DNA from: an uncultured bacterium
GTDB lineage: Bacteria; Hydrothermota; UBA3072
Reading direction: 5' to 3'
Length of the DNA: 64,000 nucleotides
Assembly (NCBI GenBank): GCA_964534175.1
Contig: CAZHNS010000009.1
Span: 460 to 64,459 of the forward strand
Positions within the stretch are counted from its first letter, which is position 1, and each line of letters opens with the position of its first letter. The position numbers and the translations under genes were made by a program. The notes under the pieces were generated by a model. It saw only the letters and a list, made by a program, of their open reading frames with translations. It was not told the DNA's origin and made no database searches. Shown piece after piece: positions 5,003 to 58,791 of this stretch.

Positions 5003-6007
5003 CTATTGGGAAAAAGTATTACTAAAGCCCCATTTCAACTGAACCATTAAAAGGTTAACGTCGGGTATGGCGCTTTCATAAATAGTCTTCTGTCCCTGAA
5101 TTTGAAGAGCAACTTGAGACCTATCGTTCGCATCTCTTAAGATGTTCCAGTTTAAACCTCCAATGATACGAGTATGACCGTCATCAACTATATCTGCATC
5201 CACGTCCCACATATCAAATCTGCCAACAATATCTACATCGACATTCATTAATTCTCTAAGACTGAAAATGGGCATTACCATAAAACCACTGCTTTTAACA
5301 TCTTCCTTATCCTGAAACAGATACTCTCCGCGCAGTTCAAAAGGTCCTTTAGAAAAACGCGCTAACCCTATAGTTGCGAATTTACTTGCATCCGTTACAT
5401 ACAATACTGAACCACCAAAAGTAAAAGATGGAATAAGTGCAAGTCTTATGTTACCCAGAAGCTCAGGATCCAGGTCCAAGTCGCTCCCGGTAACAGTATA
5501 TCCTTCTCCATTGTAAACCGAAACCGCATAAACACCTTTGCTGCCTGCGAAATTACCGCAGAAAGCAATACCATAATCGGCGGATTTCGCAACACCTTCA
5601 ACTTCTTCCAAAACTTTCTCTATTGTAATATATTCCCAATCATAGCCGAAACCAAAATAATGTTGAATTATACCAGCACTAATTTTACTTTCAGGTATAG
5701 GCAAAACATCTTTAAAATTAAGATAGGCATACTTTACTCTTACGCCGCCACCTGTCGTAGAAGTTTCATCCGAAAAGAAGTCGAGATTAAACCTGCCATC
5801 TATCTTATCCGTAATTGTAGGTTCAATCCTAAAGTAACCTCTTTCTAAAGTTAATTTACTCTTGCTTACCTCACCATCTACAATTTCATTCGTATATCTA
5901 TTCCACAACAGCATAGAGACTTTTGTCTCTCCACCAATTAAACTTATGGGGACCATAAAAACAAAAAACAACATGGATGAACAAATAAAAAGTTTAAAGA
6001 CACGCAT
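5003..6007 (-). CDS. Outer-membrane porin-like beta-barrel (phosphate-selective porin O/P-like)
   Basis: Signal peptide, alternating amphipathic strands, VKYAYL..K..AG and DYGIA..G..Y..SVYNGEG segments, strong SD GGAGG. Confidence 0.65.
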   Translation of the reverse strand: MRVFKLFICSSMLFFVFMVPISLIGGETKVSMLLWNRYTNEIVDGEVSKSKLTLERGYFRIEPTITDKIDGRFNLDFFSDETSTTGGGVRVKYAYLNFKDVLPIPESKISAGIIQHYFGFGYDWEYITIEKVLEEVEGVAKSADYGIAFCGNFAGSKGVYAVSVYNGEGYTVTGSDLDLDPELLGNIRLALIPSFTFGGSVLYVTDASKFATIGLARFSKGPFELRGEYLFQDKEDVKSSGFMVMPIFSLRELMNVDVDIVGRFDMWDVDADIVDDGHTRIIGGLNWNILRDANDRSQVALQIQGQKTIYESAIPDVNLLMVQLKWGFSNTFSQ

Positions 6008-6182
6008 AAAAACCTCCTTTTGGTTTCCACGATTACAAGAATATCATTTATTACATTACTTAACAACCAAGATGACAACATCGATTCTCTCGAAAAATAA
6101 CCAATGATTAAAATAAACTATTAACTATTTATCAACCGCTGTCAAGTCTAAAAAATATGCTAAAAGTTATCGTATTTCCGTC

Positions 6183-6210
6183 TTGACATTATATCTATTC
6201 TATTTACAAT
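6183..6210 (+). promoter_or_regulatory. Promoter TTGACA-N16-TACAAT
   Basis: Hexamers at 6183-6188 and 6205-6210. Confidence 0.7.
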
Positions 6211-6360
6211 GAGAAAGTTATTCTTTTTTAAATTAATTTTATTTAGTAAAAAAGAACGATTACTTCAAAGCACCAAAAAATTATATTGATTAGATACGGA
6301 AAAAATCAACAGTTAATATTAATCAGAAGGAGTAATTGTATATTGAAAAATACAGGCAAA

Positions 6361-7056
6361 ATGTCATATTTCGGAAAAGACTTAGAGGATATGGTTTTCG
6401 CCAAGAATTATCATAAATGGATATTGGAAAGATTCGAACCATATCTTGGAGACACTATTGCTGAAATCGGTGCCGGAACCGGAAATTTCACAAACCTTCT
6501 AATTAACAAAGGAATAAAGCATATATTTGCATTCGAACCTTCAGATAACATGTATCCACTGCTTAAAAATAGATTTCAAGAAAAAAAAGAAGTTGTAACT
6601 ATAAACGCTTTTTTGTATGAAAAATATCAAAAGTTTCTGGAATTTTTTGATTCAGTTCTTTATATAGATGTATTAGAACATATAGAATCGGATGAAGAAG
6701 AGTTGCGGTATGTATACAAAATTACTAAAAAAAATGGATTCATTCTGATTTTCGTACCGGCATTGCCATTGTTATATAGTGAATTTGATAAAAAAATTGG
6801 GCATTTCAGGAGATACTCGAAGAAAAGACTTGTAGAAGTTGTTAGAAAAAGTGGATTTTCAATAGAAAGTATTCAATATTTTGATATAGCCGGCGCAATA
6901 CTCTGGTATATTGTTTTTGTTCTTTTAGGAAAAACAACATCGAAAACAAATGTTTCTCTGTACGATAAATTTATTGTACCACCAATGAGATTTTTAGAAA
7001 ATACTATAAAACCTCCAACGGGGAAAAATCTAATACTTGTCGGAAAGAAAATTTAA
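6361..7056 (+). CDS. Class I SAM-dependent methyltransferase (glycosylation-locus type)
   Basis: EIGAGTGN, FEPS, DVLEHI, FVPA..LYSEFDKKIGHFRRY. ATG 6361 is preferred over the ORF-track TTG at 6286. Confidence 0.88.
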   Translation: MSYFGKDLEDMVFAKNYHKWILERFEPYLGDTIAEIGAGTGNFTNLLINKGIKHIFAFEPSDNMYPLLKNRFQEKKEVVTINAFLYEKYQKFLEFFDSVLYIDVLEHIESDEEELRYVYKITKKNGFILIFVPALPLLYSEFDKKIGHFRRYSKKRLVEVVRKSGFSIESIQYFDIAGAILWYIVFVLLGKTTSKTNVSLYDKFIVPPMRFLENTIKPPTGKNLILVGKKI

Positions 7057-7092
7057 AAATAAATTTATTGCTTTATAAAAAACATTTTCTTC

Positions 7093-7120
7093 TTGACTTA
7101 CCTAAAAATATGTTTACATT
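7093..7120 (+). promoter_or_regulatory. Promoter TTGACT-N16-TACATT
   Basis: Hexamers at 7093-7098 and 7115-7120. Confidence 0.6.
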
Positions 7121-7171
7121 AAAATTCGAATAAAGCAAAGTTTTTTATAATGTTTATAGAAAGAGGTGGTT

Positions 7172-7891
7172 TTGAAGTTATCGGTAGTTATACCTGTTTT
7201 TAATGAAAAAGAAACTATAAAGAAAGTCATCGAAAAAGTAAAAAAATCTCCTGTAAAAAAGGAAATAATTATAATCGATGATGGTTCTAATGATGGGACA
7301 AAAAAACTGCTACAGGATATAAAAAGAGAATCGCCCACAAATTATGATATAAAAATACTGCATCTCGACAAAAATCTGGGAAAAGGAAAAGCCATCAAAA
7401 GGGGTTTCTCATTAGTAAATGGAGATTATGTAATAATTCAGGACGCTGATCTTGAGTATGATCCGAATGAATATACAAAGTTACTCAAACCAATTTTAAA
7501 CAAAGAAACTGATGTCGTTTTTGGCTCTAGACTTCTGGGCAAGAATATACATTCAAGGCGTAATCGGCTTTTATATATAGGAAGAATCTCACTTAGCTGG
7601 ATTACTAATATTTTATTCAGCAGTAGACTCACCGATATCTATACTTGCTACAAACTTATTCCAAATGATTTAATAAGCAAATTCGATATAACTTCAAACG
7701 GTTTTGAATTAGAAGCTGAACTTACTGCCAAAATACTTATTGCCGGAAAGAAGATAAAGGAAGTTCCTATAGGTTATAGCCCCCGTTCGAAGAAAGCAGG
7801 AAAAAAAATAACATGGATTGATTGGTTTAGAGGTGTAAAAATGTTATTGTTGCTCCGATTGAAAAATAAACGCTCAAAATGTAAAAAGTAA
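7172..7891 (+). CDS. GT2 glycosyltransferase, DPM1/polyprenol-phosphate glycosyltransferase-like
   Basis: LSVVIPVFNE, IIDDGSNDGT, NLGKG, IIQDADLEYDP, VFGSR, LTDIYTCYK, GFELEAELT. Probable TTG start at 7172 after AAGAGG. Confidence 0.92.
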   Translation: MKLSVVIPVFNEKETIKKVIEKVKKSPVKKEIIIIDDGSNDGTKKLLQDIKRESPTNYDIKILHLDKNLGKGKAIKRGFSLVNGDYVIIQDADLEYDPNEYTKLLKPILNKETDVVFGSRLLGKNIHSRRNRLLYIGRISLSWITNILFSSRLTDIYTCYKLIPNDLISKFDITSNGFELEAELTAKILIAGKKIKEVPIGYSPRSKKAGKKITWIDWFRGVKMLLLLRLKNKRSKCKK

Positions 7892-7993
7892 CAAAGCGAT
7901 TTTTCATAACTAGAAGATATAAACACGCATAACTTTGTCAACATAATTTGGAACAACAAATCACACAAATAAAACGAATAAAAAATTGCAGGG

Positions 7994-8021
7994 TTGACAA
8001 ATAGACAAAAAAGAATATGAT
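7994..8021 (+). promoter_or_regulatory. csp promoter TTGACA-N16-TATGAT
   Basis: Hexamers at 7994-7999 and 8016-8021. Confidence 0.7.
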
Positions 8022-14555: not shown

Positions 14556-15121
14556 AATATCGTGCAGCAATCGGGCTTTGCAATCCCTCGTTAGATTACA
14601 TCGGAACCAGGCACAACCTTGGAGGAAGACTAATAAAATTTATTTGTTCTAAGAGAAATTTGAGCTTTAAACCGGGTAAAGGGCATTACTACTACTCCAC
14701 AGACGAAAATCTTATCTTAGCTTATGCGACGACCTTTATGAATAACAGTGGAATAGCTGTACTGGAACTATATGAAAATTTTTCACTTCCCCTTGAGAAT
14801 ATTCTTATTGTGCTTGATGATATAAATTTACCTTTTGGTAAATTAAGATTAAGAAGCGAAGGCAGCGACGGCGGACATAAAGGTCTCAACTCAATAATAT
14901 ATCATCTTGATAGCGAAAATATACCCCGCCTCAGAATCGGAATAGGGAATCATGAAGATAAAGAAACGTCAGATTGGGTCCTATCTAAATTTAGTGAAGA
15001 GGAAGAAAAAGCTATACCTGAAATATTGAAAAAAGCTAAAGAAGCTGTTTTTATTTGGAAAAATGAAAGTATTGATGTGGCTATGTCAAAAATTAACGGG
15101 AATCAAAAGGAGGTTAAATGA
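14552..15121 (+). CDS. pth: Peptidyl-tRNA hydrolase, predicted non-canonical ATA start
   Basis: An in-frame extension upstream of the ORF-track start reads (M)EYRAAIGLCNPSLDYIGTRHNLG. Also TFMNNSG, LDDINL..GKLRLR..GSDGGHKGL, PRLRIGIG. In-frame TAG at 14546-14548; SD AAGGAG 8 nt before ATA; 189 aa. Confidence 0.9.
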   Translation: MEYRAAIGLCNPSLDYIGTRHNLGGRLIKFICSKRNLSFKPGKGHYYYSTDENLILAYATTFMNNSGIAVLELYENFSLPLENILIVLDDINLPFGKLRLRSEGSDGGHKGLNSIIYHLDSENIPRLRIGIGNHEDKETSDWVLSKFSEEEEKAIPEILKKAKEAVFIWKNESIDVAMSKINGNQKEVK

Positions 15122-16048: not shown

Positions 16049-18157
16049 TTACCTCGGGGTTGCATCCGGGAGTCCACCATCAACAGGAATAGTAGAACCC
16101 GTTGTTGGAGTCTGACGGGTCGCGAAGAATAGAACTACCTTTGCAACATGTTCAGCAGTTACTTTCACCTTAAGGAGGTTTCGCTTTCTATAATATTCCG
16201 GAAGCTTCTTCTCGGAGAGACCCCTTGCTCGCATGCGGTCCGGCCCAACTTCAGCCCATAATCCGGATTTCCGCTTACCGTGAGAAAATACTGCATCGGG
16301 AGAAATCATATTTACTCTCACATCCATCTCCGCAAACTCAAGGCTTGCAATTCGAGCTAGTTGATGTGATGCTGACTTTGTTGCACTGTAAGCTCCGAAT
16401 TTGGCACCCGGTGCAAAAACGTTCTTAGTGGATATTACAATTATATCTCCTCCCGTTCCCTGGACTTTGAAATGCTTTCCCGATTCAGATAGGATATTAA
16501 GCGTACCTTCAATATTTACCTGTTCCAGTTTACGAAAAGCTTCTGTATTCATATCCATGAGAGATGAAACGTGAGCAACACCAGCATTCACAACCACCAG
16601 ATCAATTCCACCCCAATTTTGAACAACTTTTTCGAAACCATTTTTAACTGATTTTGGATTTGTTACATCAAGACCAACACCAATGACTCTTTCTTCATAC
16701 TTTTCCTTAAATTCATTTACCAATGAATCCAGATTATCCCCAGGTAAATCTGAAACAGCAACGTGACATCCTTCTTTAAGAAGTTCCTCGCAAATTCCAC
16801 TTCCGATCGCTCCTGCAGCCCCGGTTATTATTGCAACAGAGCTCTTAAGAGGAAGTTTATCTTTCCTGTTGAGCTTCGCATGTTGAAGGCTTCGATATTC
16901 CATATCAAAGAGATACGCTTCATTCAACCCCTCGTATTTTCCAATTGAAGAAATCTTCATCTTAGCAGATAAAGTCGAAACAGTGATATCTCTTACTATA
17001 TCAGCTGCTACTACATCCTTACCAGCGCATATTGCTCCTAAACCGGGTATTAGAATCACTCGAGGCATTGAATCAAAACGATTGAGTTTTCCTTTTATTT
17101 TTTTTGAATAACGCTCGAAATATTCATCATATTTTTTGGCATAATCTGCTATTGAATTCCTGATTTGTTCTCTTAATTTTTTATCATCATCATATTTAAG
17201 TTCGTTAATCCATAGTGGATAAGCTTTGGTTCTTATGAGATGGTCGGTAGTCAGGGGAGGTGTGAGTGCGATTTCTTTACCCTTATATGAATCAACAAGG
17301 TTTAGAATTTCTTTTTTTATTAGAGGTCTAAGTATAAAACGCGAGTATGGCCAGTCAGTATTTCCCGTCGGGACAGCAAGAAGACCCTTAAGGATAGGAG
17401 CAACCTTCAGATACCTTTTACTGGCAATCGATAAAGGTGTAGTTGTTTTTACTTTTAAAGTTTTCACGCCTTTCTTCGATAAATAACGTTCCGCTTTTGT
17501 TACAAGTTCAATTGTCCTCTGGTATGATTCTCGGGCGGTCTCTCCCCAGGTAAGCAGTCCATGTTTCATTAGGACCATACCTTTACAATCCGGATTTTCG
17601 TAAAATGCACTAGCAGCAGCTTTCGCCAGCTCAAACCCCGGCTTTTTGTATTCCAGTATGATTACATCGCTACCCAAAGCATCCCGGATAATTTTTTCTC
17701 CATCAATTTGATTAGTTAAAGCTAGAATAGCGTTTGAGTGAGTGTGGTCGATGTATTTCACGGGTATAAAAGCATGCATCAGAGTTTCAATTGAGGGAGT
17801 TCTGTCGGTAGCATTGAGCCGATGTGTTAATATTTCATTAACCATATCTTCATCGGAAAGTTTTTTTAGTTTTTGTAGTCGATTAAGATAATCAAGGTCA
17901 ATTCCTGTGTATCCATCCGGTTCAATATTCGAAAGATCCTGACCGGATGCCTTAACATAAACAACAGGAATTTTGTTCCCGAGAACACTTATGCATGTTC
18001 CTTTAACAGATGTATTCCCCCCGCCGTGAAGTACAAGTCCACTTTCCTCTCCAATAAGTCTACTTGTATAGATTCGGAGAGCTAGATCTTTTCCGAATTT
18101 TTTACCGTATTTAGCGAGAAACTTAGATGCCTCTTTCCCGCACCATCTATTTTTCAT
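16049..18157 (-). CDS. Bifunctional class II aldolase / short-chain dehydrogenase (RhaD/RhaEW-like fusion)
   Basis: SRLIG..LVLHGGGNTSVK, PSIETLMHAF..IDHTH (Zn site); SDR TGAAGAIG, VNAG, YSATK, VNMISPD, G..IPVDGG. Confidence 0.92.
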   Translation of the reverse strand: MKNRWCGKEASKFLAKYGKKFGKDLALRIYTSRLIGEESGLVLHGGGNTSVKGTCISVLGNKIPVVYVKASGQDLSNIEPDGYTGIDLDYLNRLQKLKKLSDEDMVNEILTHRLNATDRTPSIETLMHAFIPVKYIDHTHSNAILALTNQIDGEKIIRDALGSDVIILEYKKPGFELAKAAASAFYENPDCKGMVLMKHGLLTWGETARESYQRTIELVTKAERYLSKKGVKTLKVKTTTPLSIASKRYLKVAPILKGLLAVPTGNTDWPYSRFILRPLIKKEILNLVDSYKGKEIALTPPLTTDHLIRTKAYPLWINELKYDDDKKLREQIRNSIADYAKKYDEYFERYSKKIKGKLNRFDSMPRVILIPGLGAICAGKDVVAADIVRDITVSTLSAKMKISSIGKYEGLNEAYLFDMEYRSLQHAKLNRKDKLPLKSSVAIITGAAGAIGSGICEELLKEGCHVAVSDLPGDNLDSLVNEFKEKYEERVIGVGLDVTNPKSVKNGFEKVVQNWGGIDLVVVNAGVAHVSSLMDMNTEAFRKLEQVNIEGTLNILSESGKHFKVQGTGGDIIVISTKNVFAPGAKFGAYSATKSASHQLARIASLEFAEMDVRVNMISPDAVFSHGKRKSGLWAEVGPDRMRARGLSEKKLPEYYRKRNLLKVKVTAEHVAKVVLFFATRQTPTTGSTIPVDGGLPDATPR

Positions 18158-18864
18158 TTAATTTCCTTTAACATAAACTGGATGTTCCCTACTGGATCCT
18201 TTCCATCAAATATCGCGCTTCCGCTAACCAGGATATCAGCCCCTACTTTAGCAAACTCGGAAATATTACTTTTTTTAATACCTCCATCAAGACATAGTAG
18301 GATTTCCTTGTCAGAAGTAGAAATCAATTCCTTGACTTCCATAAATTTATCCGCATAAGAATCAAAGAAAGGGAATCCTTTTAAATGAATATCTACAGCA
18401 AGGACAACAATCATTTCAATATTATCAAGCAACCCTTTAATATGCTCAACAGGCGTATCGGGATCAACGGCAATGCCTCTTATTAATCCCCTCTCCGGGT
18501 CGTTTTTATTCTCCATTTTACCAAGATTCTTGAAAATCAAATTGACATCCTCCGGAGACTCCATATGAATAGTAATCATGTCAGCACCAGCATCTACATA
18601 TTCCCGGATTTTTTCTTCCGGACTCCTAATCATTAAATGAACATCTTTTAACAATTTAGTTTTTACAGCTTTTATAAATACTGGACCCACCGTTAATCTT
18701 TCTACAAAGCATCCATCCATAATATCAAAATGCATTAACTTTATATCTGTACCTTCGAGTAATTCAACTTCTCTACCAATTTCTAAAAAGTCGGCCGATG
18801 TTATCCCCACACTGAGCGTGGGCGAACTTCTGAGAAGAAGATTAAAGGCTTTATTGGCCGACAT
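18154..18864 (-). CDS. Ribulose-phosphate 3-epimerase family protein (LsrE/Rpe-like)
   Basis: HFDIMDG.F, DVHLMI, ITIHME, LDGGI, GAD.LVSGSAIF; the usual VNPGFGGQ loop is replaced by VDIHLKGFP. Confidence 0.88.
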   Translation of the reverse strand: MSANKAFNLLLRSSPTLSVGITSADFLEIGREVELLEGTDIKLMHFDIMDGCFVERLTVGPVFIKAVKTKLLKDVHLMIRSPEEKIREYVDAGADMITIHMESPEDVNLIFKNLGKMENKNDPERGLIRGIAVDPDTPVEHIKGLLDNIEMIVVLAVDIHLKGFPFFDSYADKFMEVKELISTSDKEILLCLDGGIKKSNISEFAKVGADILVSGSAIFDGKDPVGNIQFMLKEIK

Positions 18865-18873
18865 GAACTATCT

Positions 18874-19758
18874 TTACTTCTTTCCTTTCTTTAAAGTTTT
18901 ATATAACTCATACGCTTCTTTAGGAGACATATTTTCATGGACAACTTTTCTTACTGCCTGAATCATCGCAATTGGAGCTTCAGTTTGAAATATGTTACGT
19001 CCCATATCGACTCCACAGGCGCCCTGCTGGATTGCGTTGTATGCCATCTTGAGTGCATCAAGTTCCGGAACCTTTTTCCCGCCAGCTATAACTATAGGAA
19101 CAGGACAAGCTGCCGTTACGGTTTCAAAATCTTCAGGGACATAATATGTCTTGACATAAGACGCTCCCAGTTCAGCACATATTCTCGTTGCCAGGCGCAT
19201 ATATTTAGCGTCCCGTTTCATCTTTTTACCTACCGCAGTAACACCAAGAACAGGAATGCCATATTTGTGACCCATGTCCACAAGTCGTGTCAGGTTATGT
19301 ATCGATTTGGTTTCAAACTCACCTCCAATAAAAACCTGAACTGCAAGTGCTGCAACATTAAGACGTATTGCATCTTCTATATCAACGGCAATCTCCTCAT
19401 TTGAGAGCTCTTTAAGTATGCTCGGACCGCCGCTTGCTCTAAGAACGACCCCTTTTGTAAAAGTTGGAGGAATAGTCGAGCGTAGTATTCCTCGTGTACA
19501 CATCAAGGTATCAGCATATGGAAGCAGTGGCACAATACTTACATCGATTCTTTCCAAACCTGTGGTCGGACCGAGAAAATATCCGTGATCAACGGCAAGC
19601 ATCACAGTTCGATTGGTATTGGGATTGAAAATATTTGAAAATCTATTTTTCATACCCCATGCAATTGAGTTTGAGCCGCGAAGTGTAAAAGGCTCGTTCT
19701 TCATGGGGATATCCAGGTGATAATTGTGAGTTTTTTGAATTCCTTCTTTGTCTGCCAT
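18874..19758 (-). CDS. lsrF: 3-hydroxy-5-phosphonooxypentane-2,4-dione thiolase (LsrF family)
   Basis: PFTLRG..AWGMKNR..IFNP...[56 protein letters not shown]. Start at ATG 19758 after GGAGG. Confidence 0.93.
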
Positions 19759-19801
19759 GGCTTGTCCTCCTTTTATTTTATAGCCCTTTCTTATATCTGG
19801 C

Positions 19802-19830
19802 ATTATAAATATAGATTCTCCCTCTGTCAA
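19802..19830 (-). promoter_or_regulatory. lsrF operon promoter TTGACA-N17-TATAAT
   Basis: TGTCAA at 19825-19830, ATTATA at 19802-19807. Confidence 0.8.
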
Positions 19831-20010: not shown

Positions 20011-20637
20011 TTACAAATTCGCGAAATCACCAATCCCGATACTAAACTTCACATACCACTGGTGAAGAGGCATCTCTGGAGCGTTCTGTATCTCTATCTC
20101 CTCCATTCCCTCTAAAACCAATTGCGGTGTACGTAAGCTATATACATAACCGGTAGAAACACCACCAGCCAGATAATCCGATATAGCTAAAATCACACCC
20201 GTACTTGCCGAGAGAACGAAAGAGGAACCTTTGTAGTTAACGCTTCCTTCGGGATTCGAAAGTGACCCGGTGAAATCGATTATTTCATCCTCTTTAACTG
20301 ATTTCAAGTTTACCGAAGAATATCCACCCCCACCGCTCAAGAAAAAGATAAGACGGGAAAAGCTAACTGCGTAACCTAATTCAATCAATTTAGAATCAAA
20401 AGAAAGGTCCATCAACAGTGAATCTAAATCTGCTGTTTCACTTCCTTTCAATGATTTCATACCCAGAGCAAGGTTGTTTTCAATTAGAAGTAAACTCCAA
20501 CTCCACCCCCATTCCTTTTCCTTGAATCCTTGAGTAGACTCAATTCTTTCATTTAATTTATCGATTGTATAATGGGCAGTGTAATCCTTATCCACAGATA
20601 TGATTCCGGTAGAAAGCCCTAGTATTAGCAGCAACAT
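20011..20637 (-). CDS. Hypothetical outer-membrane beta-barrel protein
   Basis: Short signal peptide, Gly/aromatic amphipathic strands, abuts the upstream gene. Confidence 0.6.
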   Translation of the reverse strand: MLLLILGLSTGIISVDKDYTAHYTIDKLNERIESTQGFKEKEWGWSWSLLLIENNLALGMKSLKGSETADLDSLLMDLSFDSKLIELGYAVSFSRLIFFLSGGGGYSSVNLKSVKEDEIIDFTGSLSNPEGSVNYKGSSFVLSASTGVILAISDYLAGGVSTGYVYSLRTPQLVLEGMEEIEIQNAPEMPLHQWYVKFSIGIGDFANL

Positions 20638-21240
20638 TCAAAAATTTCTCCCCAATCTAAATACATACTCTACAATCCATTCATTATCATCACCGTTTCC
20701 AAAACCCTCTATCCAATCTTTGTTCTCGGAAAAAATAAAATCTGAAAAGGCTTCTGCCGATATAACAAAGCCGGCTAATTCACCCCTCAGGCCAGCTCCT
20801 CCACCAAGAGACAGGCTAAAACCCTCAAACTCATTACCGTTAAGACTTGTAACCACCTCACCTCCACTTACAAATCTCCAGCTACTAAAACCCAATCGCC
20901 CTGATAGATATGGGGAAAGCACAATCCTGAATGGAATCCAGTTAACGGAAAAACTCCCACTTAAATTCTCAAAATCTTCACCGACTACTTCCGAAAAGAA
21001 CTGCCGCTCTCCGAGAGAATCATACATAAAAGCCATAGTTCGAGTTGAAGCAGTAGCTGTCCCTTTCTGAATGGAAAAACTGTAATTCAGATTCGGGTTT
21101 ATATAAAAATCACAAAAAACCCCAAAAGAAGGTCCAAATTCCGGAGAAACAATATCGTTACCCTTCAATTCAAACATCCCGCCTTCAAGTCCGACCGTAA
21201 ATGAGAACAAAATATAAAATATCATAAATAACCTCCGCAC
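20638..21240 (-). CDS. Outer-membrane beta-barrel protein (OmpA/OmpW-like 8-strand type)
   Basis: Signal peptide, SPYLSGRLG, LGGGAGLR, C-terminal VEYVFRLGRNF. Confidence 0.7.
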   Translation of the reverse strand: MRRLFMIFYILFSFTVGLEGGMFELKGNDIVSPEFGPSFGVFCDFYINPNLNYSFSIQKGTATASTRTMAFMYDSLGERQFFSEVVGEDFENLSGSFSVNWIPFRIVLSPYLSGRLGFSSWRFVSGGEVVTSLNGNEFEGFSLSLGGGAGLRGELAGFVISAEAFSDFIFSENKDWIEGFGNGDDNEWIVEYVFRLGRNF

Positions 21241-21524
21241 CTTTCTTCAATTTCCTTTACCGTAAGCAAGAAACCTTCCTTAATCCATTCATCTTTTTTT
21301 TCTTCAATTTTCTTTCGAAAACTTTCAAAACCCTTATCATCAAGGCAAAACTTATACTGCGCAAAGTACCCCGGCCATATATGTGTATCAAGCTTGGGAT
21401 CAGTACCCTTCAATTTTCCAATAACTTTAGGAATCATAAAATACTCATCAACTTTTTCTTCTTCTAGTACTTCTTGGAACTGATCCTCTAACCCCATAAA
21501 TATGACAACTTCAATCTGTTTCAT
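21222..21524 (-). CDS. PII-like transporter-associated protein (PG0541 family)
   Basis: ~100 aa, IPKVIGK..GTDPKLDTHIWPG, directly after the RND permease. Confidence 0.8.
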   Translation of the reverse strand: MKQIEVVIFMGLEDQFQEVLEEEKVDEYFMIPKVIGKLKGTDPKLDTHIWPGYFAQYKFCLDDKGFESFRKKIEEKKDEWIKEGFLLTVKEIEERCGGYL

Positions 21525-24500
21525 TCTGACAATCTCCTTTTTAACTTTGATTCAAAAATCATATATAAAGTCGGAATTAAAAGCAGCGTTATGAAGGACG
21601 AAACAATCATACCCCCAACAACAGAAATACCGAGGGATTTCCATAAAACTGAACCGCTACCGGTAGAAAAGGCAAGAGGCAAAAGTCCAAAAACTGTAGT
21701 ACCTGTAGTCATAAGTATAGGTCTTAATCTTCTTTTAGCGCCGGTTTTAACAGCTTCCATCAAATCCATACCCCTTTTACGCAGGATATTGAAGTAATCT
21801 ATCATAACGATAGCATTGTTAACAACGATACCAACAAGCATCGCTATGCCAACCATACCCATAAGACTCATAGATTGAAAACTCACCCAGTAAGCAAGAG
21901 AGACTCCTACGAAAGCAAAAGGTACAGAAAACATTATTATGAAAGGATCAAAGAAAGACTCAAACTGCGCAGCCATAACAAGATATACAAGAATGATACC
22001 GAGCAATATAGCAAAAATCAGACTGCCAAAAGTTTCTCCCTGCTGCTCAACCTGACCCGCATAATTAATATTCAATCCCTTGGGTATGACAAAAGAATCT
22101 ACAACTTTCTTAACATCTCTCATAACATTTCCAAGCGCTCCAGAAACGCTTATCTTTAATACCACCATTCGTTCTTTATTCTTTCTTTCGACCGAAAGCG
22201 AAGCTCTCTTCTCTACGGGTTCTAGAAAATTGGATATATGAACAGGCATTCCCACTTGACTAACAAGCTGTAAATTATCTATGGTTTCAAAGGAATTTCT
22301 GCTCTCATCATCAAGCCTAACAATTATAGGATATTCTATACCTTCTTCACTGAATTTGCCAATCTCCGTACCGTAAAATGCGGTCCTGAGCTCCGAACCA
22401 GCCGTATAAGCAGAAAACCCGTATGAATACATCTCTGAAAGTCGGGGATCCAGCCATAATTCCCTTCCGCCTTTTTTTCTGGAAACCTCAATAGAGGAAA
22501 TACCTCTCACAGATACAAGTGCTTCTCTTAAAACCTCTGCTAGAGAATCGGCTTTTTCTAGATCGTCTCCGATTATTTCAACTTCAATAGGTGCACCTCC
22601 AAAAACGCCCTCATCGTCTCCACCGAACATTCCGCCTATAACGGAAAACTTGACTCTCTTTATCCCAGGAATATCAGCAACTTTTTCATTAAGTTCATCG
22701 GCGATTTGGAATTTAGATTTTTCTGTTTTTCCCATTGTGCTATATAAAGTAATCCAGTGAGACCCCTTTGCTCCTCCAAAAATATCTCCAGTACCACCTG
22801 CCTGTACCGTGACACTTTTCGTTTCAGGAACTTCTTTCCACATAAGTTCTTCTATTTTCTTAGCCATCTCGTTTGTCTTTTCTACTCTTGTTCCTATAGG
22901 AAGTTCGATGTTTGCCTGCAACTGGTCGCTACCAGGATTTGGAAAGAAATCCATTGGAACGAACCTAAATAGGAACATACCAATGATAAAGATAACAATA
23001 AATATACCTAATAGCTTTCCTCTACGCGTAAGAGCCCAATCTAACATTCCGGAATAACCAGATTCAAGCTTACCGAAAAATCTGTCAGCAAAACCTTCTT
23101 CCTTCTTCATTTTTAGGAATCTGGACGAAAGCATTGGTGCAAGTGTAATAGCAGTCAGAAAAGATACTGAAAGCATTAAAGGCATCGTTATTGCAAGTTC
23201 CTTAAACATAACAGCTACAAGTCCTCTTGTAAGCATTAAGGGTAAAAATATAACAATTGTCGTTACAGTCGATGCAAGTATTGCCTGGGAGACTTCCTGC
23301 GCGCCAAATATAGAAGCTTCTTTACGCGTCTCCCCGGATTCCCTATGACGGAAAACGTTTTCCAGAACAACAACGGCATTATCAACCACCATACCCACAG
23401 CGATAGCAATTGCAGAAAGGGATATAATATTTAGACTGCTGTCCGATAAATACAGATATATAAAAGAAATAATCAAAGAAACCGGAATAGCCACAGCAAT
23501 AATTATACTTGCTCTTATATTCCCAAGGAGCAGAAAAGAAACAACAAGGACAAGAAGAATTGCTATAGATATAGTATTTACAAGATTACTTATAGAATCT
23601 TCAACCATTTCCGAGAGATCAAAAATAACCTCAAAGTTAAGCCCGGGATATCTCTCCCCAAGTTCTTCCACCCTTTTCTTAACCAATTTCGCAACCTCTA
23701 CAGTATTTCCTCCGGATTTCTTAAATATACCGAACATAGCCGCATCCTTTCCATTTCTTCTAAAATATCCGTCTTTTTCTCCTACACCCCAGCTAACAGT
23801 CGCGATATCTCTTAACTCCACCAACTTACCATTATTATACCCAACTACAACTTTTTCGATATCTTCAAGGTTTTCAAATTTTCCTGGAAGCCTTAGACTG
23901 TACTCTATTCCTCCCTGTTCTAACTTACCAACAGGAAAATTTAGATTATTGGCTTGCAGAACCTGCGTAACCTGCATCAGAGAAACTCCAAGCTGCTCAA
24001 GCCTTACCTGTGAAATATCGATGTTAATTTGTTTCGATTCACCTCCACCCCAATAATCTGCGGAACCGACTCCGGGTACTCTCGAAAGTTCATCCAAAAC
24101 TCTGTCTTCAACTATACTCTTAATATCAACACCCGGATTCTCTGTCGACACGGTAAAACCAATGACCGGAGCCATCGAACCGGATATCTTAAACAACATA
24201 GGGTCTCCCGCATCATCAGGCAATATAGCGAACCCCAAGGCATCTCTCAAATCATTTGCAGCTTCATCAAGGTTGGTACCGTATTCAAACTCAAGGGAAA
24301 TAATGGACATGTTTTCCCTTGAATCGGATTTAATTGTTTTAAGATTTGCTACATTACCAAGCGCATCTTCCAATTCCTTCGAAACTTCTTCTTCAACATC
24401 TAACGCTGATGCTCCTCTGTATTCGGTCATTACCATTAAAGTAGGAAGCGTAACATCAGGATACAAAGAAACAGGGAGATTAGACCATCCGAATAATCCC

Positions 24501-24565
24501 AAAAGAACCAGAACAATAAAACCGACAGCAGTTAAAACAGGACGATTTACTGCTCCTTGTATCAT
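21521..24565 (-). CDS. RND efflux permease (AcrB/AcrD/AcrF family)
   Basis: 1014 aa; PVSLYPDV, GMVVDNAVVVLENVFRH, ILASTVTTIVIFLP, GIVVNNAIV, RLRPILMTT. Confidence 0.97.
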   Translation of the reverse strand: MIQGAVNRPVLTAVGFIVLVLLGLFGWSNLPVSLYPDVTLPTLMVMTEYRGASALDVEEEVSKELEDALGNVANLKTIKSDSRENMSIISLEFEYGTNLDEAANDLRDALGFAILPDDAGDPMLFKISGSMAPVIGFTVSTENPGVDIKSIVEDRVLDELSRVPGVGSADYWGGGESKQINIDISQVRLEQLGVSLMQVTQVLQANNLNFPVGKLEQGGIEYSLRLPGKFENLEDIEKVVVGYNNGKLVELRDIATVSWGVGEKDGYFRRNGKDAAMFGIFKKSGGNTVEVAKLVKKRVEELGERYPGLNFEVIFDLSEMVEDSISNLVNTISIAILLVLVVSFLLLGNIRASIIIAVAIPVSLIISFIYLYLSDSSLNIISLSAIAIAVGMVVDNAVVVLENVFRHRESGETRKEASIFGAQEVSQAILASTVTTIVIFLPLMLTRGLVAVMFKELAITMPLMLSVSFLTAITLAPMLSSRFLKMKKEEGFADRFFGKLESGYSGMLDWALTRRGKLLGIFIVIFIIGMFLFRFVPMDFFPNPGSDQLQANIELPIGTRVEKTNEMAKKIEELMWKEVPETKSVTVQAGGTGDIFGGAKGSHWITLYSTMGKTEKSKFQIADELNEKVADIPGIKRVKFSVIGGMFGGDDEGVFGGAPIEVEIIGDDLEKADSLAEVLREALVSVRGISSIEVSRKKGGRELWLDPRLSEMYSYGFSAYTAGSELRTAFYGTEIGKFSEEGIEYPIIVRLDDESRNSFETIDNLQLVSQVGMPVHISNFLEPVEKRASLSVERKNKERMVVLKISVSGALGNVMRDVKKVVDSFVIPKGLNINYAGQVEQQGETFGSLIFAILLGIILVYLVMAAQFESFFDPFIIMFSVPFAFVGVSLAYWVSFQSMSLMGMVGIAMLVGIVVNNAIVMIDYFNILRKRGMDLMEAVKTGAKRRLRPILMTTGTTVFGLLPLAFSTGSGSVLWKSLGISVVGGMIVSSFITLLLIPTLYMIFESKLKRRLSE

Positions 24566-25455
24566 CTTATCTCCTTTATATCTATTTTTGCACTATCTTT
24601 GACAATATTCTGCCCTACAACAATAACAGTATCACCGGCAGAAACACCTTCCCTTATAATCAAACTATTACCGTTAGTAAAACCAACACTAACTGGCGAA
24701 AGTAAAGCTATGCCTTTTTTAGCTTTGAAAACATATTTGTCAACCAACCCGATTACCGCGTCTATCGGAAGGGAAATGGCATTATTTTCACGCGCGACTT
24801 CTACCCAGACCTTGGCAAACATTCCTGGAAGAATTTCTTTTTTGGTATTTGGCACGACTCCCACGACATGCTGCGTCCTGCTGCTCGAATTGTAAAAAAC
24901 AGAAGCTTCTTCAACTTTACCTTCAAACATTTTAGAAAGAGAAGAAATCTCAACTTTTAACGGCAATCCCTCCTTGATATAAAATTTCTCCGGAACATCA
25001 AATTCAACTTTTATTCGGTCGATTCTCGCAACTTCAGCCAGAGGAGGTTCAGGAAACATGGGATCCTGCTGACGAATAAGCTGTCCTTTGTCAACAGAAC
25101 GTAAAGAAATAATACCAGGTATAGTACTTTTAACGGCAATCGGCTCTCTCTCAACCCCGGGTACATCCTGCTCCAGATAAGCTATAATCTGGTCTTTTTT
25201 CACCCACTGACCGTTTCCAACTGCATACTTTAGAAATCTTCCGGGTATATCGGGAAAAATTTGAGCCTGTTCTATGCCTTCTACCTGGGACGAAAAACTC
25301 ATAATCTTAACAGCATCTTTAACTTTGGCAGTAGTAACAACTACAGGAACATCTTTAACTTCTTCTTCAACTTTCGCTGCAGACATTTTCATTCTTATTA
25401 ATCCGGGTATACCTAAAAGCAAAACAATAACAATAATAAAAATCCACTTTTTCAT
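24562..25455 (-). CDS. RND periplasmic adaptor (MFP)
   Basis: N-terminal anchor, lipoyl-like VGNGQWVKKDQ, ILPGMFAKV, G+S.GD.VIVVGQ. Confidence 0.93.
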   Translation of the reverse strand: MKKWIFIIVIVLLLGIPGLIRMKMSAAKVEEEVKDVPVVVTTAKVKDAVKIMSFSSQVEGIEQAQIFPDIPGRFLKYAVGNGQWVKKDQIIAYLEQDVPGVEREPIAVKSTIPGIISLRSVDKGQLIRQQDPMFPEPPLAEVARIDRIKVEFDVPEKFYIKEGLPLKVEISSLSKMFEGKVEEASVFYNSSSRTQHVVGVVPNTKKEILPGMFAKVWVEVARENNAISLPIDAVIGLVDKYVFKAKKGIALLSPVSVGFTNGNSLIIREGVSAGDTVIVVGQNIVKDSAKIDIKEIR

Positions 25456-26750
25456 AATTCCTCCTTATCTATCATTGAGGCAATTTTAATTTGTTCTTTC
25501 GAAACAATAAGATTGTACTGAGCATTAAGATGGGAAAATTCTGCGCTTTTGAATCCCAATTCTATATCCTTATACTGAAGCGCAGATATATAACCGGCTC
25601 TGTACTGCTTATCCGCCATTTCGTACGCTTCTTTAGCCCTTTTTAACTGTTCCGCGGAAAGCATTAATTTTTGTTTGTTTAAGCTATATGTAAGAAGCTG
25701 ATTTTTTATATCCATCTTTATACCTTCTTCAATTATTTTCTCTCTAATAACAGATTGCTCGACCGATAGCCTGTATTTATCTATCGCATTTGTTCTTGAA
25801 AAGCCCTGAAAAATGGGAAGCGAAATGGCAATTGTTGCAGTCATATCATTATCCCATTCATTTAAAAACCCAATTGGCTTACCATACGAAAAACTTCCGG
25901 CAAATATTATATCAGGCAAGAAAGTAAGATACTGCAAAGATTTACCGAGTTTTGCCACTTCATTCAATTTTTTCATACTTTTAATCTCAGGTCTCCTACT
26001 AAGGGCAAAATTAGTCAATGAGTCAATATTAAAAGTATCGATATCTACTTCGATTTCTCCCGAAACATCCAAAACTGTATCCAAAGGAAGTCCCAACATT
26101 ATATTCAAACCCGCCCTGGCTTGCTCGACTCCGTTTCGGGCGTTTAACAATTCTGTTTTACGGCTATTAAACTCCGTCTCCGCTGATAGCAAATCGAGCT
26201 TTGTTATTCTACCCTGATTATACTGTATGCGGGCAGTTCTTAGGTGATCTTCGGACCGCTCAAGGGCACCTTCCGCTATTTTCGTACCCTCTTCCGCTAC
26301 AACAACACCGTAGAAAACAGTAACAAGATCTTTTATTAAATTAATTTTATTGGTTTCATGCTGTAAATTTTGAATATCTTTTCCTCTCGCTCCCATTTCT
26401 TTGGCTACAAACCTTTTCCCAAAAGTAAAAATCGGAAAATTCACCTGAAGAGAATTGCTATAATTATCAGCGTAACCGAGAGAAATATACTCCGTACTAC
26501 CATCAGCCATAGGCATCTCGAACTGAGGAACACTTAAAAGCCTTGTATAACTTGATTGCAGACTTATTGTCGGATAAAAAGACGCCCATGATTCCCTCAT
26601 TGCAATTTCAGCTTTTTTTACTTCAATCTCTGATATTTCCATATCTCTATTTCTATCCAGCGCTATTTTCTTCGCTTCCTCAAAAGTTAAAGAAAACAGA
26701 GACAAAGAAAACATCAAAAGAAGTATAGACACAAATCTAAACCTCAACAT
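25452..26750 (-). CDS. TolC family outer-membrane efflux protein
   Basis: Signal peptide, helical repeats, QYNQGRITKLDLLSAE, YRAG.IS. Confidence 0.93.
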   Translation of the reverse strand: MLRFRFVSILLLMFSLSLFSLTFEEAKKIALDRNRDMEISEIEVKKAEIAMRESWASFYPTISLQSSYTRLLSVPQFEMPMADGSTEYISLGYADNYSNSLQVNFPIFTFGKRFVAKEMGARGKDIQNLQHETNKINLIKDLVTVFYGVVVAEEGTKIAEGALERSEDHLRTARIQYNQGRITKLDLLSAETEFNSRKTELLNARNGVEQARAGLNIMLGLPLDTVLDVSGEIEVDIDTFNIDSLTNFALSRRPEIKSMKKLNEVAKLGKSLQYLTFLPDIIFAGSFSYGKPIGFLNEWDNDMTATIAISLPIFQGFSRTNAIDKYRLSVEQSVIREKIIEEGIKMDIKNQLLTYSLNKQKLMLSAEQLKRAKEAYEMADKQYRAGYISALQYKDIELGFKSAEFSHLNAQYNLIVSKEQIKIASMIDKEEL

Positions 26751-27325
26751 TTAACCTCCTTTCTAACTCCATCCAAAAGAATAGAAAGAGCAGTTTTTTT
26801 TATTGTTTCGGACTCAGATTCTTCGACAGCCATTATCAAAGAAACAATTATTTCATAAACATCATTAAAATTTAATTTACTATGCGGCAAATATCCCTTT
26901 AAAACACTCACCGCTTCTTCCTCCAAGTCTCCAATAATTTCAGCAATAGACGCATTAATTTTTTGCAAACATTCGAGCGGGATATTAGACCCTCTCATTC
27001 CTTTCTGAACTTTCCCAAACCTGGAAAAAAATCCATCTCCTCTTATAAATTTCTCAAAATAATCAAAAATCTCCGAAAAAACTTCTTCGAAACCTTTTCC
27101 AGAATCAATAATTTTCCTTACATTTTCTATAATTTCCCTGTGCGCCTCCACAAAGATTTCGATAAAAAGGTCAGCCTTGGAATGAAAATATAGATACAAC
27201 GTACCCTTTGCTACACCACAGGCATCCGCAACCTCCTCTACAGTAACAGGATGGTACCCCTTTTTGGCAAAGAGCTTCTTTCCTTTTTCCATTATTTGCT
27301 TCCTTCTTACTGACTGGTCAGTCAT
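26744..27325 (-). CDS. TetR/AcrR family transcriptional regulator
   Basis: LFAKKGYHPVTVEEVADACGVAKGTLYLYFHSKADL helix-turn-helix. Confidence 0.96.
   Translation of the reverse strand: MTDQSVRRKQIMEKGKKLFAKKGYHPVTVEEVADACGVAKGTLYLYFHSKADLFIEIFVEAHREIIENVRKIIDSGKGFEEVFSEIFDYFEKFIRGDGFFSRFGKVQKGMRGSNIPLECLQKINASIAEIIGDLEEEAVSVLKGYLPHSKLNFNDVYEIIVSLIMAVEESESETIKKTALSILLDGVRKEVKC
27311..27324. promoter_or_regulatory. Candidate TetR operator TGACTG-N2-CAGTCA overlapping the first codons of tetR
   Basis: 6-2-6 palindrome immediately downstream of the promoter. Confidence 0.75.
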
Positions 27326-33707: not shown

Positions 33708-34397
33708 CTAATTAACTGTATAAACCGTCGGATCTTCTACCCCAGCATCCTCAAATCCCTTTTTCCTTAAAAGACAGCTATCACATTTACCACAAGCTCT
33801 TCCCTTCTCATCCGGGTCATAACAACTATGAGTTAAGCTGTAATCAACATCTAACTTTATACCTTTTCTTATTATTTCTGCCTTTGAAAGTGATATAAGC
33901 GGAGTATGAATTTTTATTTTCTTACCCTCTACCCCATTTTTTGTGCCAAGATTTGCCGCTTTTTCAAAAGCTTCAATAAATTCGGACCTGCAATCGGGAT
34001 AGCCGGAATAATCAACCACATTAACACCAATAAATATATCGGACGCCCCCAGAACCTCAGCCCATCCCAAAGCAAGACTTAAAAAAATAATATTACGAGC
34101 AGGAACATAAGTAACGGGAATTTCTTTTCCAATATCTTCAACTCCTCCCTTCTTCGGAACCGGAATATCATCGGTTAACGCAGAACCGCCGAAAGAAGTT
34201 AAGTCGATATCCGTGATAAAGTGCCTTTTTACACCCATATCAATGGAAATTTTCTTGGCAGCCTCAATTTCAAAATGATGCCTCTGACCGTAACGAAAAC
34301 TAATTGCGTATACTTCATATCCTGAATTTTTAGCAGTCGCGAGAGTAGTCGCGGAATCGATACCGCCGCTTAACAAAACTACTGCTTTCTTTCCCAA
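33708..34397 (-). CDS. queC: 7-cyano-7-deazaguanine synthase
   Basis: [40 protein letters not shown]; TTG start. Confidence 0.98.
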
Positions 34398-34398
34398 C

Positions 34399-35037
34399 TT
34401 ACCTCCCCCTTTTTTCTTCAGGCCACAGAATTTTATGTAATTGAATTTGAAGACGGACTTTTAGGGCATCTTTTAAAATCCACTCGGCAAGTAAATCCGG
34501 ACTCAATTTTTCTTTAACAGAAGATAATAAAACCTTAGCCTTATCAGTCAGGTTTCTTTCGGCTATTATTTCTTTCGCCCAATCATAATCTGCCCTTTCG
34601 GCAATTACAAACTTAACTTCATCCTTTCTATCTAATCGCTTTATATTTTCCCAATCGATTTCATTCACTTCTCCGCTCGAAGGGCATTTTATGTCCATAA
34701 TTATTACAGCTTTATCGGAAACAACACTAATATCTTTAGTTCCGTTAGTTTCAATGAGCACTGTAAAACCTTTATCTATTAAATAATCCACCAGCATGGG
34801 AGTTTCGTCCTGCAGGAGAGGTTCTCCCCCGGTAATTTCAACATAACGGCATTTAAATTTTTTTACTTCCTTTAAAATCTGCTTAGTAGTGAACTCCTTT
34901 CCATCTTCATAGGCATATTTTGTATCACAATAAGAACATCTTAGATTACAGCCTGCAAGCCTTATAAAGACAAAAGGAATTCCCGAAAAAGAAGATTCAC
35001 CCTGAATAGAATAAAAGATTTCGTTAACTTTAAGCAA
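34399..35037 (-). CDS. queE: 7-carboxy-7-deazaguanine synthase (radical SAM)
   Basis: [37 protein letters not shown]; TTG start. Confidence 0.96.
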
Positions 35038-35038
35038 T

Positions 35039-56079: not shown

Positions 56080-56080
56080 T

Positions 56081-57193: not shown

Positions 57194-57197
57194 GAAA

Positions 57198-58757: not shown

Positions 58758-58763
58758 GGAAGG

Positions 58764-58791
58764 AATATAAAATTAACGATTGAAATGTCAA
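58764..58791 (-). promoter_or_regulatory. Promoter TTGACA-N16-TATATT, 6 nt from the ATG (apparently leaderless)
   Basis: TGTCAA at 58786-58791, AATATA at 58764-58769; ATG at 58757. Confidence 0.75.

Follow-up and report, generated by a model that had tools for sequence, protein, structure and literature searches.

A conserved lsrF-RpeL-dehydrogenase operon of uncultured bacteria, without neighbouring autoinducer-2 genes, may convert a deoxy-pentulose phosphate to acetyl-CoA

Three adjacent genes on a 64-kb stretch of DNA from an uncultured bacterium (GTDB lineage Hydrothermota, UBA3072; contig CAZHNS010000009.1, positions 460 to 64,459; hereafter the window) encode an LsrF-like thiolase, a divergent enzyme of the ribulose-phosphate 3-epimerase (Rpe) family that we call RpeL, and a class II aldolase fused to a short-chain dehydrogenase/reductase (SDR). 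The trio is a genuine module, tightly conserved, widespread and so far undescribed; no account of an lsrF-RpeL-SDR operon was found in the literature searched. It is not a member of the lsr system, which processes autoinducer-2 (AI-2), and its substrate is probably a deoxy-sugar phosphate of internal origin and not a quorum-sensing signal. We tentatively favour, as possible, a scheme in which the trio is a self-contained, constitutively expressed three-enzyme module around 3-hydroxy-2,4-pentanedione 5-phosphate (P-HPD), outside AI-2 uptake and processing, with flow from a deoxy-pentulose 1-phosphate to P-HPD and on to dihydroxyacetone phosphate (DHAP) and acetyl-CoA. The identity of the substrate, the direction of flux and the role of each domain are what we infer from the evidence set out below.

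The association of the three genes is decisively beyond chance. The locus set comprised 80 metagenome loci retrieved with an alignment of diverse RpeL homologues, eight genome loci and further loci found through LsrF, about 90 in total; a scan of the genome collection with the single RpeL protein gave eight close relatives together with ordinary Rpe genes. An lsrF gene lies upstream in all 69 RpeL loci with at least 1 kb of upstream sequence, an SDR or fusion gene lies downstream in all 71 with at least 0.9 kb of downstream sequence, and the order and strand of lsrF, RpeL and SDR are constant in every testable locus. This constancy spans considerable divergence, with RpeL proteins falling into 61 clusters at 90% identity and reaching down to 47% identity to the window protein. 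By source name, the confirmed trio loci come from WOR-3, Terriglobia and other Acidobacteriota, Armatimonadota and Latescibacteria, and one lineage whose third gene is an SDR alone looks planctomycete-like from a DUF1559 neighbour. Homologue names also point to Desulfobacterota-type lineages and Bacteroidota, at the level of single-protein matches. The nearest public relative is a candidate division WOR-3 metagenome-assembled genome, with an LsrF that is 93% identical and the same flanking gene order. Cluster look-ups gave phylum-level names and one isolate, Magnetofaba australis, as a candidate carrier. The plasmid collection contained no trio-type RpeL or LsrF gene, only lsr operons and fusions of the RhaEW type known from rhamnose loci.

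In the window, the three open reading frames (ORFs) were listed on the minus strand at 16049-18157, 18154-18864 and 18874-19830 and are transcribed in the order lsrF-like gene, RpeL gene, fusion gene (Table 1). They are translationally coupled in a single operon: lsrF and RpeL lie 9 nt apart, and the fusion start shares bases with the RpeL stop in an ATGA overlap. The initial annotation had placed lsrF, an Rpe-family epimerase and an aldolase-SDR fusion in one operon under a consensus promoter, and the coordinates, the overlaps and the promoter, which matches at 12 of 12 positions, bear this out. The listed lsrF ORF opens with the TTG at 19830, which belongs to the -35 hexamer. Because the promoter thus lies inside the TTG-initiated ORF, and because the alignment to the NCBIfam model NF006081 begins at residue 25 of that ORF, we place the true lsrF start at the ATG at 19758. 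About 20 loci of the WOR-3 clade have identical promoter hexamers and spacing, 40-45 nt ahead of the lsrF ATG, and conserve the strong ribosome-binding site too. From the sequences of the promoter and the ribosome-binding site alone, we infer that expression of the operon is high or constitutive. The sequence itself was present only in DNA metagenomes, from soil and sediment, and no RNA run matched.

Table 1. Features of the trio operon, in positions of the window.
Feature	Position	Strand	Basis or remark
Sigma-70 consensus promoter	19802..19830	-	TTGACA 19830-19825, 17-nt spacer, TATAAT 19807-19802; 12/12 match
Shine-Dalgarno AAAGGAGG	19766..19773	-	7 nt upstream of lsrF ATG; read from sequence; kept in nearly all related loci
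lsrF-like, 294 aa, class I (Schiff-base) aldolase-fold CoA-dependent thiolase	18874..19758	-	NF006081 and 3gkf matches
RpeL, 236 aa, divergent ribulose-phosphate 3-epimerase-family (beta/alpha)8 enzyme	18154..18864	-	PF00834
Fusion, N-terminal class II (metal-dependent) aldolase domain, residues 1-232	17462..18157	-	PF00596; 165 bits to PDB 3m4r
Fusion, middle region, residues 233-432, fold not assigned	16862..17461	-	Conserved across PRK08324 family
Fusion, C-terminal classical SDR, NAD(H)-type, residues 433-702 and stop	16049..16861	-	PF00106, 139 bits

By sequence and active site, the first gene belongs to the LsrF family, and P-HPD cleavage is predicted for its product. The protein scores 500.9 bits against NF006081 (3-hydroxy-5-phosphonooxypentane-2,4-dione thiolase; cut-off 297), aligns gaplessly over about 290 residues with Escherichia coli LsrF at 59% identity (tblastn), and has the E. 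coli LsrF structure 3gkf as its best solved-structure match (381 bits). Residues D57, H58, K203, Y205, G226, G227, D251, M252, G253 and R254 are invariant in the 70 sequences aligned, namely 69 trio-type LsrFs and the E. coli enzyme; the roles of the active-site residues in phosphate binding and catalysis, with Lys203 forming the Schiff base, are known from the LsrF structure (PMC2728841). Conservation reaches at least 95% at 146 of the 291 alignment positions. Since 69 sequences keep the E. coli LsrF active site unchanged, the substrate very probably shares the DHAP-acetyl skeleton of the E. coli substrate, and the enzyme should interconvert DHAP and acetyl-CoA with P-HPD (CH3-CO-CHOH-CO-CH2OP), as annotated for the E. 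coli enzyme, or with a very close compound. The trio-type LsrFs form a group of their own, 67-94% identical to the window protein, versus at most about 62% for the LsrFs of lsr operons, and the top matches (82-94% identical) carry the source names WOR-3, Desulfobacteraceae, Krumholzibacteria and Limnocylindrales.

Stand-alone lsrF-like genes, with products 82-87% identical to the window protein, were also seen, in the Limnocylindrales-like loci L003, L004, L107 and L108 and in the Krumholzibacteria locus L109, with no RpeL or SDR gene within 8-10 kb. In the Limnocylindrales-like group the gene adjoins those for trehalose-phosphate phosphatase and synthase.

In E. coli and Salmonella, LsrF is the P-HPD thiolase that carries out the last step of AI-2 processing, and the trio enzyme shares all of its named active-site residues, including K203, D57, D251 and R254. 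The surroundings of the two genes differ. A tblastn search with eight E. coli Lsr proteins (E<=1e-3) gave no lsrK, lsrG, lsrR, lsrB, lsrC or lsrD match in the window or within 10 kb on either side of any trio locus, LsrF being the only match in both; the absence of lsrK, lsrG, lsrR and lsrACDB asserted by the initial annotation therefore holds within the window and around the approximately 90 related loci. Unlike the lsr-operon genes, the lsrF of the trio is always followed by RpeL and an SDR, with no lsrK, lsrG, lsrR or lsrACDB nearby, and its product belongs to a separate, more conserved clade under a constitutive-looking promoter.

The second gene, RpeL, matches the Pfam family Ribul_P_3_epim (PF00834) at 150 bits and falls below every curated equivalog cut-off, including that for rpe (TIGR01163; 165 versus 212.6 bits). 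In common with Rpe and its paralogues AlsE and SgcE it has the fold and the His-x-Asp, His and Asp residues for metal binding and acid-base catalysis, the set shared with canonical Rpe being H45, D47, M49, D50, H76, M78 and D193. It departs from them in three places. The canonical Met ahead of the lid loop, part of the Met cushion, is replaced by L155; a family-specific insertion of 5-8 residues before strand 5 (ENKNDPxRGLIRG) includes N119, N121, R125 and R129 and is expected, given where it falls in the sequence, to lie on the N-terminal barrel face, remote from the active site; and the GFGGQ lid is lost, with 'lavdihlkgfpff' aligned to 'msvnpgfggqkfi' of the canonical enzyme. The initial annotation had stressed this last feature. 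The replacement of VNPGFGGQ by VDIHLKGFP is confirmed by alignment, but the exact loop is only a local variant of the family consensus VNPxVKGxPF. Since the lid sequence varies across the RpeL family, the functional weight placed on the remodelled loop is weak, and the Leu-for-Met replacement and the insertion are the more constant hallmarks.

The third gene encodes a protein of 702 residues, with Pfam Aldolase_II at 30-225, adh_short at 441-625 and a conserved middle of about 200 residues. It scores 869 bits against NF006194 (cut-off 686), and 471 bits against TIGR02632, the rhamnose enzyme, under the cut-off of 567.75. The middle region matches models of bifunctional aldolase/SDR proteins only and has 44 invariant positions; an AlphaFold2 model of the fusion made with 18 homologues had a mean pLDDT (predicted local distance difference test) of 53.5, too poor for use. 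The aldolase domain, where present, shows no sign of decay: the phosphate-site motif GGGNT, PSIE with its catalytic Glu, and DHTHS and HG..TWG with the metal histidines are invariant across 48 fused homologues. It is absent, however, from 10 loci of about four lineages. There the third gene, an SDR alone, begins within a few bases of the end of RpeL, and its product shares 62-70% identity with the window SDR domain. Because of these loci, we take LsrF, RpeL and SDR to be the obligatory core of the module, with the aldolase as a part that is not obligatory. The converse arrangement was seen on a Sinorhizobium meliloti plasmid (NZ_CP021823.1, 377377-378612), where an unannotated stretch has the aldolase and middle regions without the SDR (query residues 1-429, 36% identity).

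The SDR domain has an invariant TGAAGAIG motif, an invariant Asp after strand beta-2 (D470) and the triad S576...Y590-x3-K594. The Asp marks a preference for NAD(H), which suits an oxidative step. An Arg/Lys-rich substrate loop is also present; we considered it as proof of a phosphorylated substrate and rejected it, since the loop is partly common to RhaEW. With RhaEW and rhizobial RhaD the fusion shares the class II aldolase-middle-SDR architecture, 31% identity, the metal-binding and phosphate motifs and the YRKR..LK loop. RhaEW is NAD+-dependent (PMC3870299), and the SDR of the trio fusion is NAD-type by motif. The differences are that the trio fusion belongs to NF006194 and not to TIGR02632 or NF006189, that it is never in a rha locus among the trio loci and is always partnered with LsrF and RpeL, that its catalytic residue is Glu (PSIE), against Asp (SIDT) in the rhizobial enzyme, and that its aldolase domain is dispensable in some lineages. 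We regard the fusion as a paralogue of RhaEW and not as an orthologue.

The module is autonomous, having no dedicated transporter, kinase, isomerase or regulator. All-versus-all clustering of the flanking ORFs gave no recurrent fourth gene, only lineage-specific housekeeping synteny; in a set of 150 non-redundant neighbours, all within 4 kb, three was the highest count for any Pfam family (the commonest being the tetratricopeptide repeat, TPR), and Pfam scans of 10 candidate operon partners returned unrelated functions. The trio lies near prs, ctc, pth, rpsF and ssb in WOR-3, and near ruvCAB, folK, a deoxynucleoside kinase gene, panB, panC, gdh and lpxC in Terriglobia. No dxs, mtn or rha genes are present in the window, for which the ORF annotation is near-complete. 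Co-occurrence with mtnP/mtnA or with rha genes, which the initial annotation had raised, was not seen at the level of the locus: neither mtnP nor mtnA adjoins any trio, and no rha gene recurs near the roughly 90 trio loci.

An obligatory NAD-type dehydrogenase next to LsrF is most simply explained if its reaction links P-HPD, in one direction or the other, to a deoxy-pentulose phosphate. There are two compounds of this kind that convert to P-HPD on oxidation: 5-deoxy-ribulose/xylulose 1-phosphate, at the carbinol on the methyl side, and 1-deoxyxylulose 5-phosphate (DXP), at the carbinol on the phosphate side. The initial annotation was correct in its chemistry, namely that C4 oxidation of 5-deoxyribulose 1-phosphate or of DXP gives the same compound, P-HPD, and its mechanistic idea is modestly strengthened, if unproven. 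In the scheme that we favour, the NAD+-dependent SDR would oxidise a methyl-terminated deoxy-pentulose phosphate, most likely 5-deoxy-ribulose/xylulose 1-phosphate, at the carbinol two carbons from the keto group, yielding the beta-diketone P-HPD. RpeL would set or equilibrate the configuration at C3, and LsrF would cleave P-HPD by thiolysis to DHAP and acetyl-CoA. Where the fused class II aldolase is present, it would reversibly interconvert the deoxy-pentulose 1-phosphate with DHAP and acetaldehyde. The substrate could come from salvage of 5'-deoxyadenosine or 5-deoxyribose, or from acetaldehyde, and the carbon would leave as acetyl-CoA, with NADH, instead of as free acetaldehyde.

RpeL can be read as a C3 epimerase in that C3 of P-HPD is as far from the phosphate as C3 of ribulose 5-phosphate, beside a carbonyl that could bind the metal. 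By textbook stereochemistry, aldolases of the FucA/RhaD type make and use 3R ketose 1-phosphates, whereas class I enzymes of the fructose-1,6-bisphosphate aldolase type, which have the LsrF fold, handle the 3S configuration; this mismatch would give a further rationale for an epimerase at C3.

We chose the oxidative direction because of the full-length homology to RhaEW, the NAD+ requirement of RhaEW, the NAD-type motif and the clamped equilibrium of the aldol reaction. RhaEW formed neither DHAP nor lactate from rhamnulose 1-phosphate without NAD+, and free lactaldehyde was never offered; its authors took the NAD+ need to mean that one domain depends on the other (PMC3870299). By our own reinterpretation, these data could equally fit an SDR that oxidises the intact ketose phosphate before the carbon-carbon bond is cleaved. 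Aldol cleavage of 5-deoxyribulose 1-phosphate is reversible, with an equilibrium constant near 1e-4, so that the ketose phosphate pool is clamped high (Beaudoin et al., PMC6079011). Given this thermodynamic clamp, an oxidative, thiolytic drain would make physiological sense: oxidation and thiolysis would be an effectively irreversible exit that avoids free acetaldehyde. Compared with the known DHAP shunt for disposal of 5-deoxyribose (MtnP or MtnK, MtnA/DrdI, Ald2/DrdA), the common points would be 5-deoxyribulose 1-phosphate, as proposed for the trio, DHAP and a class II aldolase-family domain. In contrast to that shunt, the trio has no linked kinase, phosphorylase or isomerase, and it would add a dehydrogenase, an epimerase and a thiolase, with the C2 unit leaving as acetyl-CoA and NADH and not as acetaldehyde.

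Several points weigh against this oxidative scheme. In none of the approximately 90 loci does the trio have a linked mtnP, mtnN, mtnK, mtnA or drdK/I gene, and at least two lineages have LsrF with no partner beside it. Shared use of 5-deoxyribulose 1-phosphate by the aldolase and the SDR/LsrF branch would make the protein a fusion of competing steps, unless the aldolase runs in the condensing direction. The 82-94% conservation of LsrF, the consensus promoter and the housekeeping neighbours look like those of a central or essential function and not of the salvage of a minor by-product. The analogy with Rpe-family enzymes points to 2-keto-pentose 5-phosphates, which are DXP-like, and not to 1-phosphates, and the NAD-type motif is compatible with an NADH-driven reduction.

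In a rival reading, the flux would run the other way and the trio would make DXP independently of the DXP synthase Dxs. LsrF would condense acetyl-CoA and DHAP to P-HPD, the SDR would reduce the phosphate-proximal ketone with NADH, pulling the unfavourable Claisen step as PhaA and PhaB do, RpeL would set C3, and the class II aldolase-family domain, where present, would act like the 4-epimerase AraD and set C4 to give D-threo DXP for the methylerythritol phosphate (MEP) pathway, thiamine and pyridoxal 5'-phosphate (PLP). Like Dxs and its bypasses (the isoprenoid shunt from methylthioadenosine, MTA, and the RibB/YajO suppressors), the trio would then feed DXP to the MEP pathway, but by a CoA-dependent Claisen condensation and a reduction, without the thiamine diphosphate and decarboxylation of Dxs. 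We consider this unlikely, although the anabolic reading fits the housekeeping context about as well as the oxidative one does. Central metabolites would suffice as substrates, matching the autonomy of the module, and the neighbours are housekeeping and cofactor genes (ispE-prs-pth in WOR-3, ruvCAB-folK-panBC in Terriglobia); the consensus promoter and very high conservation agree with this. The window organism is on the MEP pathway, judging by ispE; Rpe-family enzymes use 2-keto-pentose 5-phosphates, of which DXP is a 1-deoxy analogue; and loss of the aldolase-like domain in some lineages would be easy if the stereochemistry of the reductase differs there. The trio is also common in Terriglobia and other Acidobacteriota, and in 2023 a survey covering 4,400 complete bacterial genomes listed 181 species that have all MEP enzymes but Dxs, 172 of them unexplained, the list including Ca. 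Koribacter versatilis, Paludibaculum fermentans, Luteitalea pratensis and Chloracidobacterium of the Acidobacteriota, as well as Rhodothermus marinus, Salinibacter ruber, Thermodesulfovibrio, Atribacter and others (PMC10663253). For R. marinus, the authors of a metabolic model explicitly describe the origin of its DXP as unknown. On the other hand, Acidobacterium, Acidisarcina and Edaphobacter have Dxs, as does Kuenenia, and none of the Dxs-less species turned up in the cluster look-ups for cultured carriers. The condensation is thermodynamically uphill, the SDR motif is NAD-type and not NADP-type, full-length homology relates the fusion to RhaEW, an enzyme that uses a ketose 1-phosphate, and no link between LsrF and DXP was found in the literature searched.

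The kinship of the fusion with RhaEW could also mean that the substrate is a 6-deoxyhexulose, rhamnulose or fuculose 1-phosphate, whose oxidation at C4 would give a 2,4-diketone for thiolysis by LsrF to DHAP and lactyl-CoA; alternatively, the fusion alone would yield DHAP and lactate, with the other two genes as accessories. In favour are a full-length identity of 31% between the fusion and the rhamnose-locus enzyme of Rhizobium, a TIGR02632 score of 471 bits and the RhaD label of public annotations, yet that score is under the cut-off of 567.75 and the protein belongs to a different equivalog, NF006194. RhaEW is reported to lie always inside rha loci (PMC3870299), whereas no rhamnose isomerase, kinase, transporter or regulator recurs near the approximately 90 trio loci, fuc genes being missing there as well, and the LsrF residues are those of the acetyl-specific E. 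coli enzyme; we think this reading improbable. Ordinary disposal of AI-2, or of spontaneous phosphate of 4,5-dihydroxy-2,3-pentanedione (DPD), would have a kinase and transporter elsewhere in the genome supplying P-DPD, RpeL replacing LsrG as the enediol isomerase that forms P-HPD, and LsrF finishing the pathway. By score and active site the LsrF-like protein is indeed a bona fide LsrF orthologue, and Rpe chemistry, with its metal-stabilised enediolate, could in principle perform the LsrG isomerisation. This account is nevertheless very improbable, given that lsrK, lsrR, lsrACDB and lsrG are missing from the window and from the 10 kb around the trio loci, that no FGGY kinase or sugar ABC transporter recurs near the trios, that the obligatory SDR is left without a role, that the promoter looks constitutive and not LsrR-controlled, and that identity to the window protein does not exceed about 62% for lsr-operon LsrFs, against 67-94% among the trio type. 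The substrate might instead be a hydroxylated pentulose phosphate, either xylulose 5-phosphate or ribulose 1-phosphate, for example downstream of a non-carboxylating pentose-bisphosphate route, with C4 oxidation and thiolysis giving DHAP and glycolyl-CoA in a phosphoketolase-like split. These substrates are central metabolites, which fits the autonomy, an Rpe-family enzyme is present, and the aldolase domain has a weak likeness to ribulose-1-phosphate aldolase (21.5 bits). The residues of the acyl pocket, however, appear as in the acetyl-specific LsrF, and no downstream route for glycolyl-CoA is known in these organisms; this variant is pure inference, and we give it hardly any credence.

Annotators routinely take LsrF as a sign of AI-2 quorum sensing, and papers cite it to that effect; for instance, a Syntrophobacter paper reads Sfum_2464 as AI-2 sensing. 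Recognition that uncultured and soil phyla have a large and highly conserved clade of LsrFs unrelated to lsr operons would correct a widespread misannotation, and the fusion is likewise mislabelled RhaD in public annotations. If the favoured oxidative scheme is true, it would be a new means of disposing of 5-deoxy sugars or acetaldehyde, in which the C2 unit is kept as acetyl-CoA by way of a beta-diketone sugar phosphate and thiolysis. If the trio instead makes DXP, it would fill the missing DXP synthase for some of the 172 Dxs-less bacteria, with consequences for their isoprenoids, thiamine and PLP (Koribacter, Paludibaculum, Luteitalea and Rhodothermus being candidates), and would offer metabolic engineers an entry to the MEP pathway that is free of decarboxylation.

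There may also be consequences for RhaEW itself. The 'lactaldehyde dehydrogenase' activity of this enzyme was inferred solely from the conversion of rhamnulose 1-phosphate and NAD+ to DHAP and lactate (PMC3870299). RhaEW may oxidise first and cleave second, and the accepted order of aldol cleavage followed by aldehyde oxidation may need to be re-examined. A further locus tied to this question of mechanism is L105, at 5923-8019.

Some loci have other neighbours that bear noting. In L043, L052 and L106, the region downstream of the trio has, on the opposite strand, genes for a cupin (114-122 aa), a MetH-like B12-dependent methionine synthase and a fusion of methylenetetrahydrofolate reductase (MTHFR) with an S-methyltransferase, and in this lineage the trio thus adjoins genes of the S-adenosylmethionine (SAM) cycle. 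A cupin also acts in the MTA-to-DXP shunt of Rhodospirillum. Aldo/keto reductase genes adjoin the trio in L005 (14903-16817, with an AraC regulator) and the stand-alone lsrF in L109 (6592-7626); YajO, the E. coli enzyme implicated in a bypass of Dxs, is an aldo/keto reductase.

Convergent to the trio operon in the window is an ispE-spoVG-prs-ctc-pth-rpsF-ssb cluster, in which ispE scores 209 bits against TIGR00154 (cut-off 138.7). We considered the proximity of ispE as evidence for DXP synthesis and rejected it, since ispE, prs and pth make up a conserved cluster of their own, oriented convergently to the trio. Within the cluster, pth (14556-15121, plus strand) was listed from a TTG at 14660 (153 aa), while about 35 conserved N-terminal residues (IEYRAAIGLCNPSLDYIGTRHNLGG...) are encoded in frame upstream. 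That upstream stretch directly follows a stop codon and contains no ATG, GTG or TTG, and the gene call of the WOR-3 relative begins at the same 'IEYRAA'; the start codon of pth therefore seems to be non-canonical, and it lies next to where the L25 gene ends.

On the other side, between the trio and an RND (resistance-nodulation-division) efflux operon (tetR-OEP-MFP-AcrB, 21521-27325), three small minus-strand ORFs of 208, 200 and 100 aa at 20011-21524 lack a match in Pfam or NCBIfam and look rich in Gly/Ser and in beta structure; their position is kept in 14-17 WOR-3-clade loci. Apart from the efflux operon, the window holds queC/E/D, nadE, dut, glycosyltransferase and sulfate-activation genes, and genes for proteins sorted by the type IX secretion system (T9SS). 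The queC-queE-queD genes, of which queE encodes a radical SAM enzyme, form a compact cluster for 7-deazaguanine synthesis at 33708-35425 on the minus strand. Also on the minus strand, at 55459-63038, are genes for a cysD-like PAPS_reduct protein, cysN, a TauE-family exporter, two proteins of the type I phosphodiesterase/sulfatase fold and a sulfotransferase, which lie beside genes for GT4 glycosyltransferases and a flippase and suggest the synthesis of a sulfated surface glycan.

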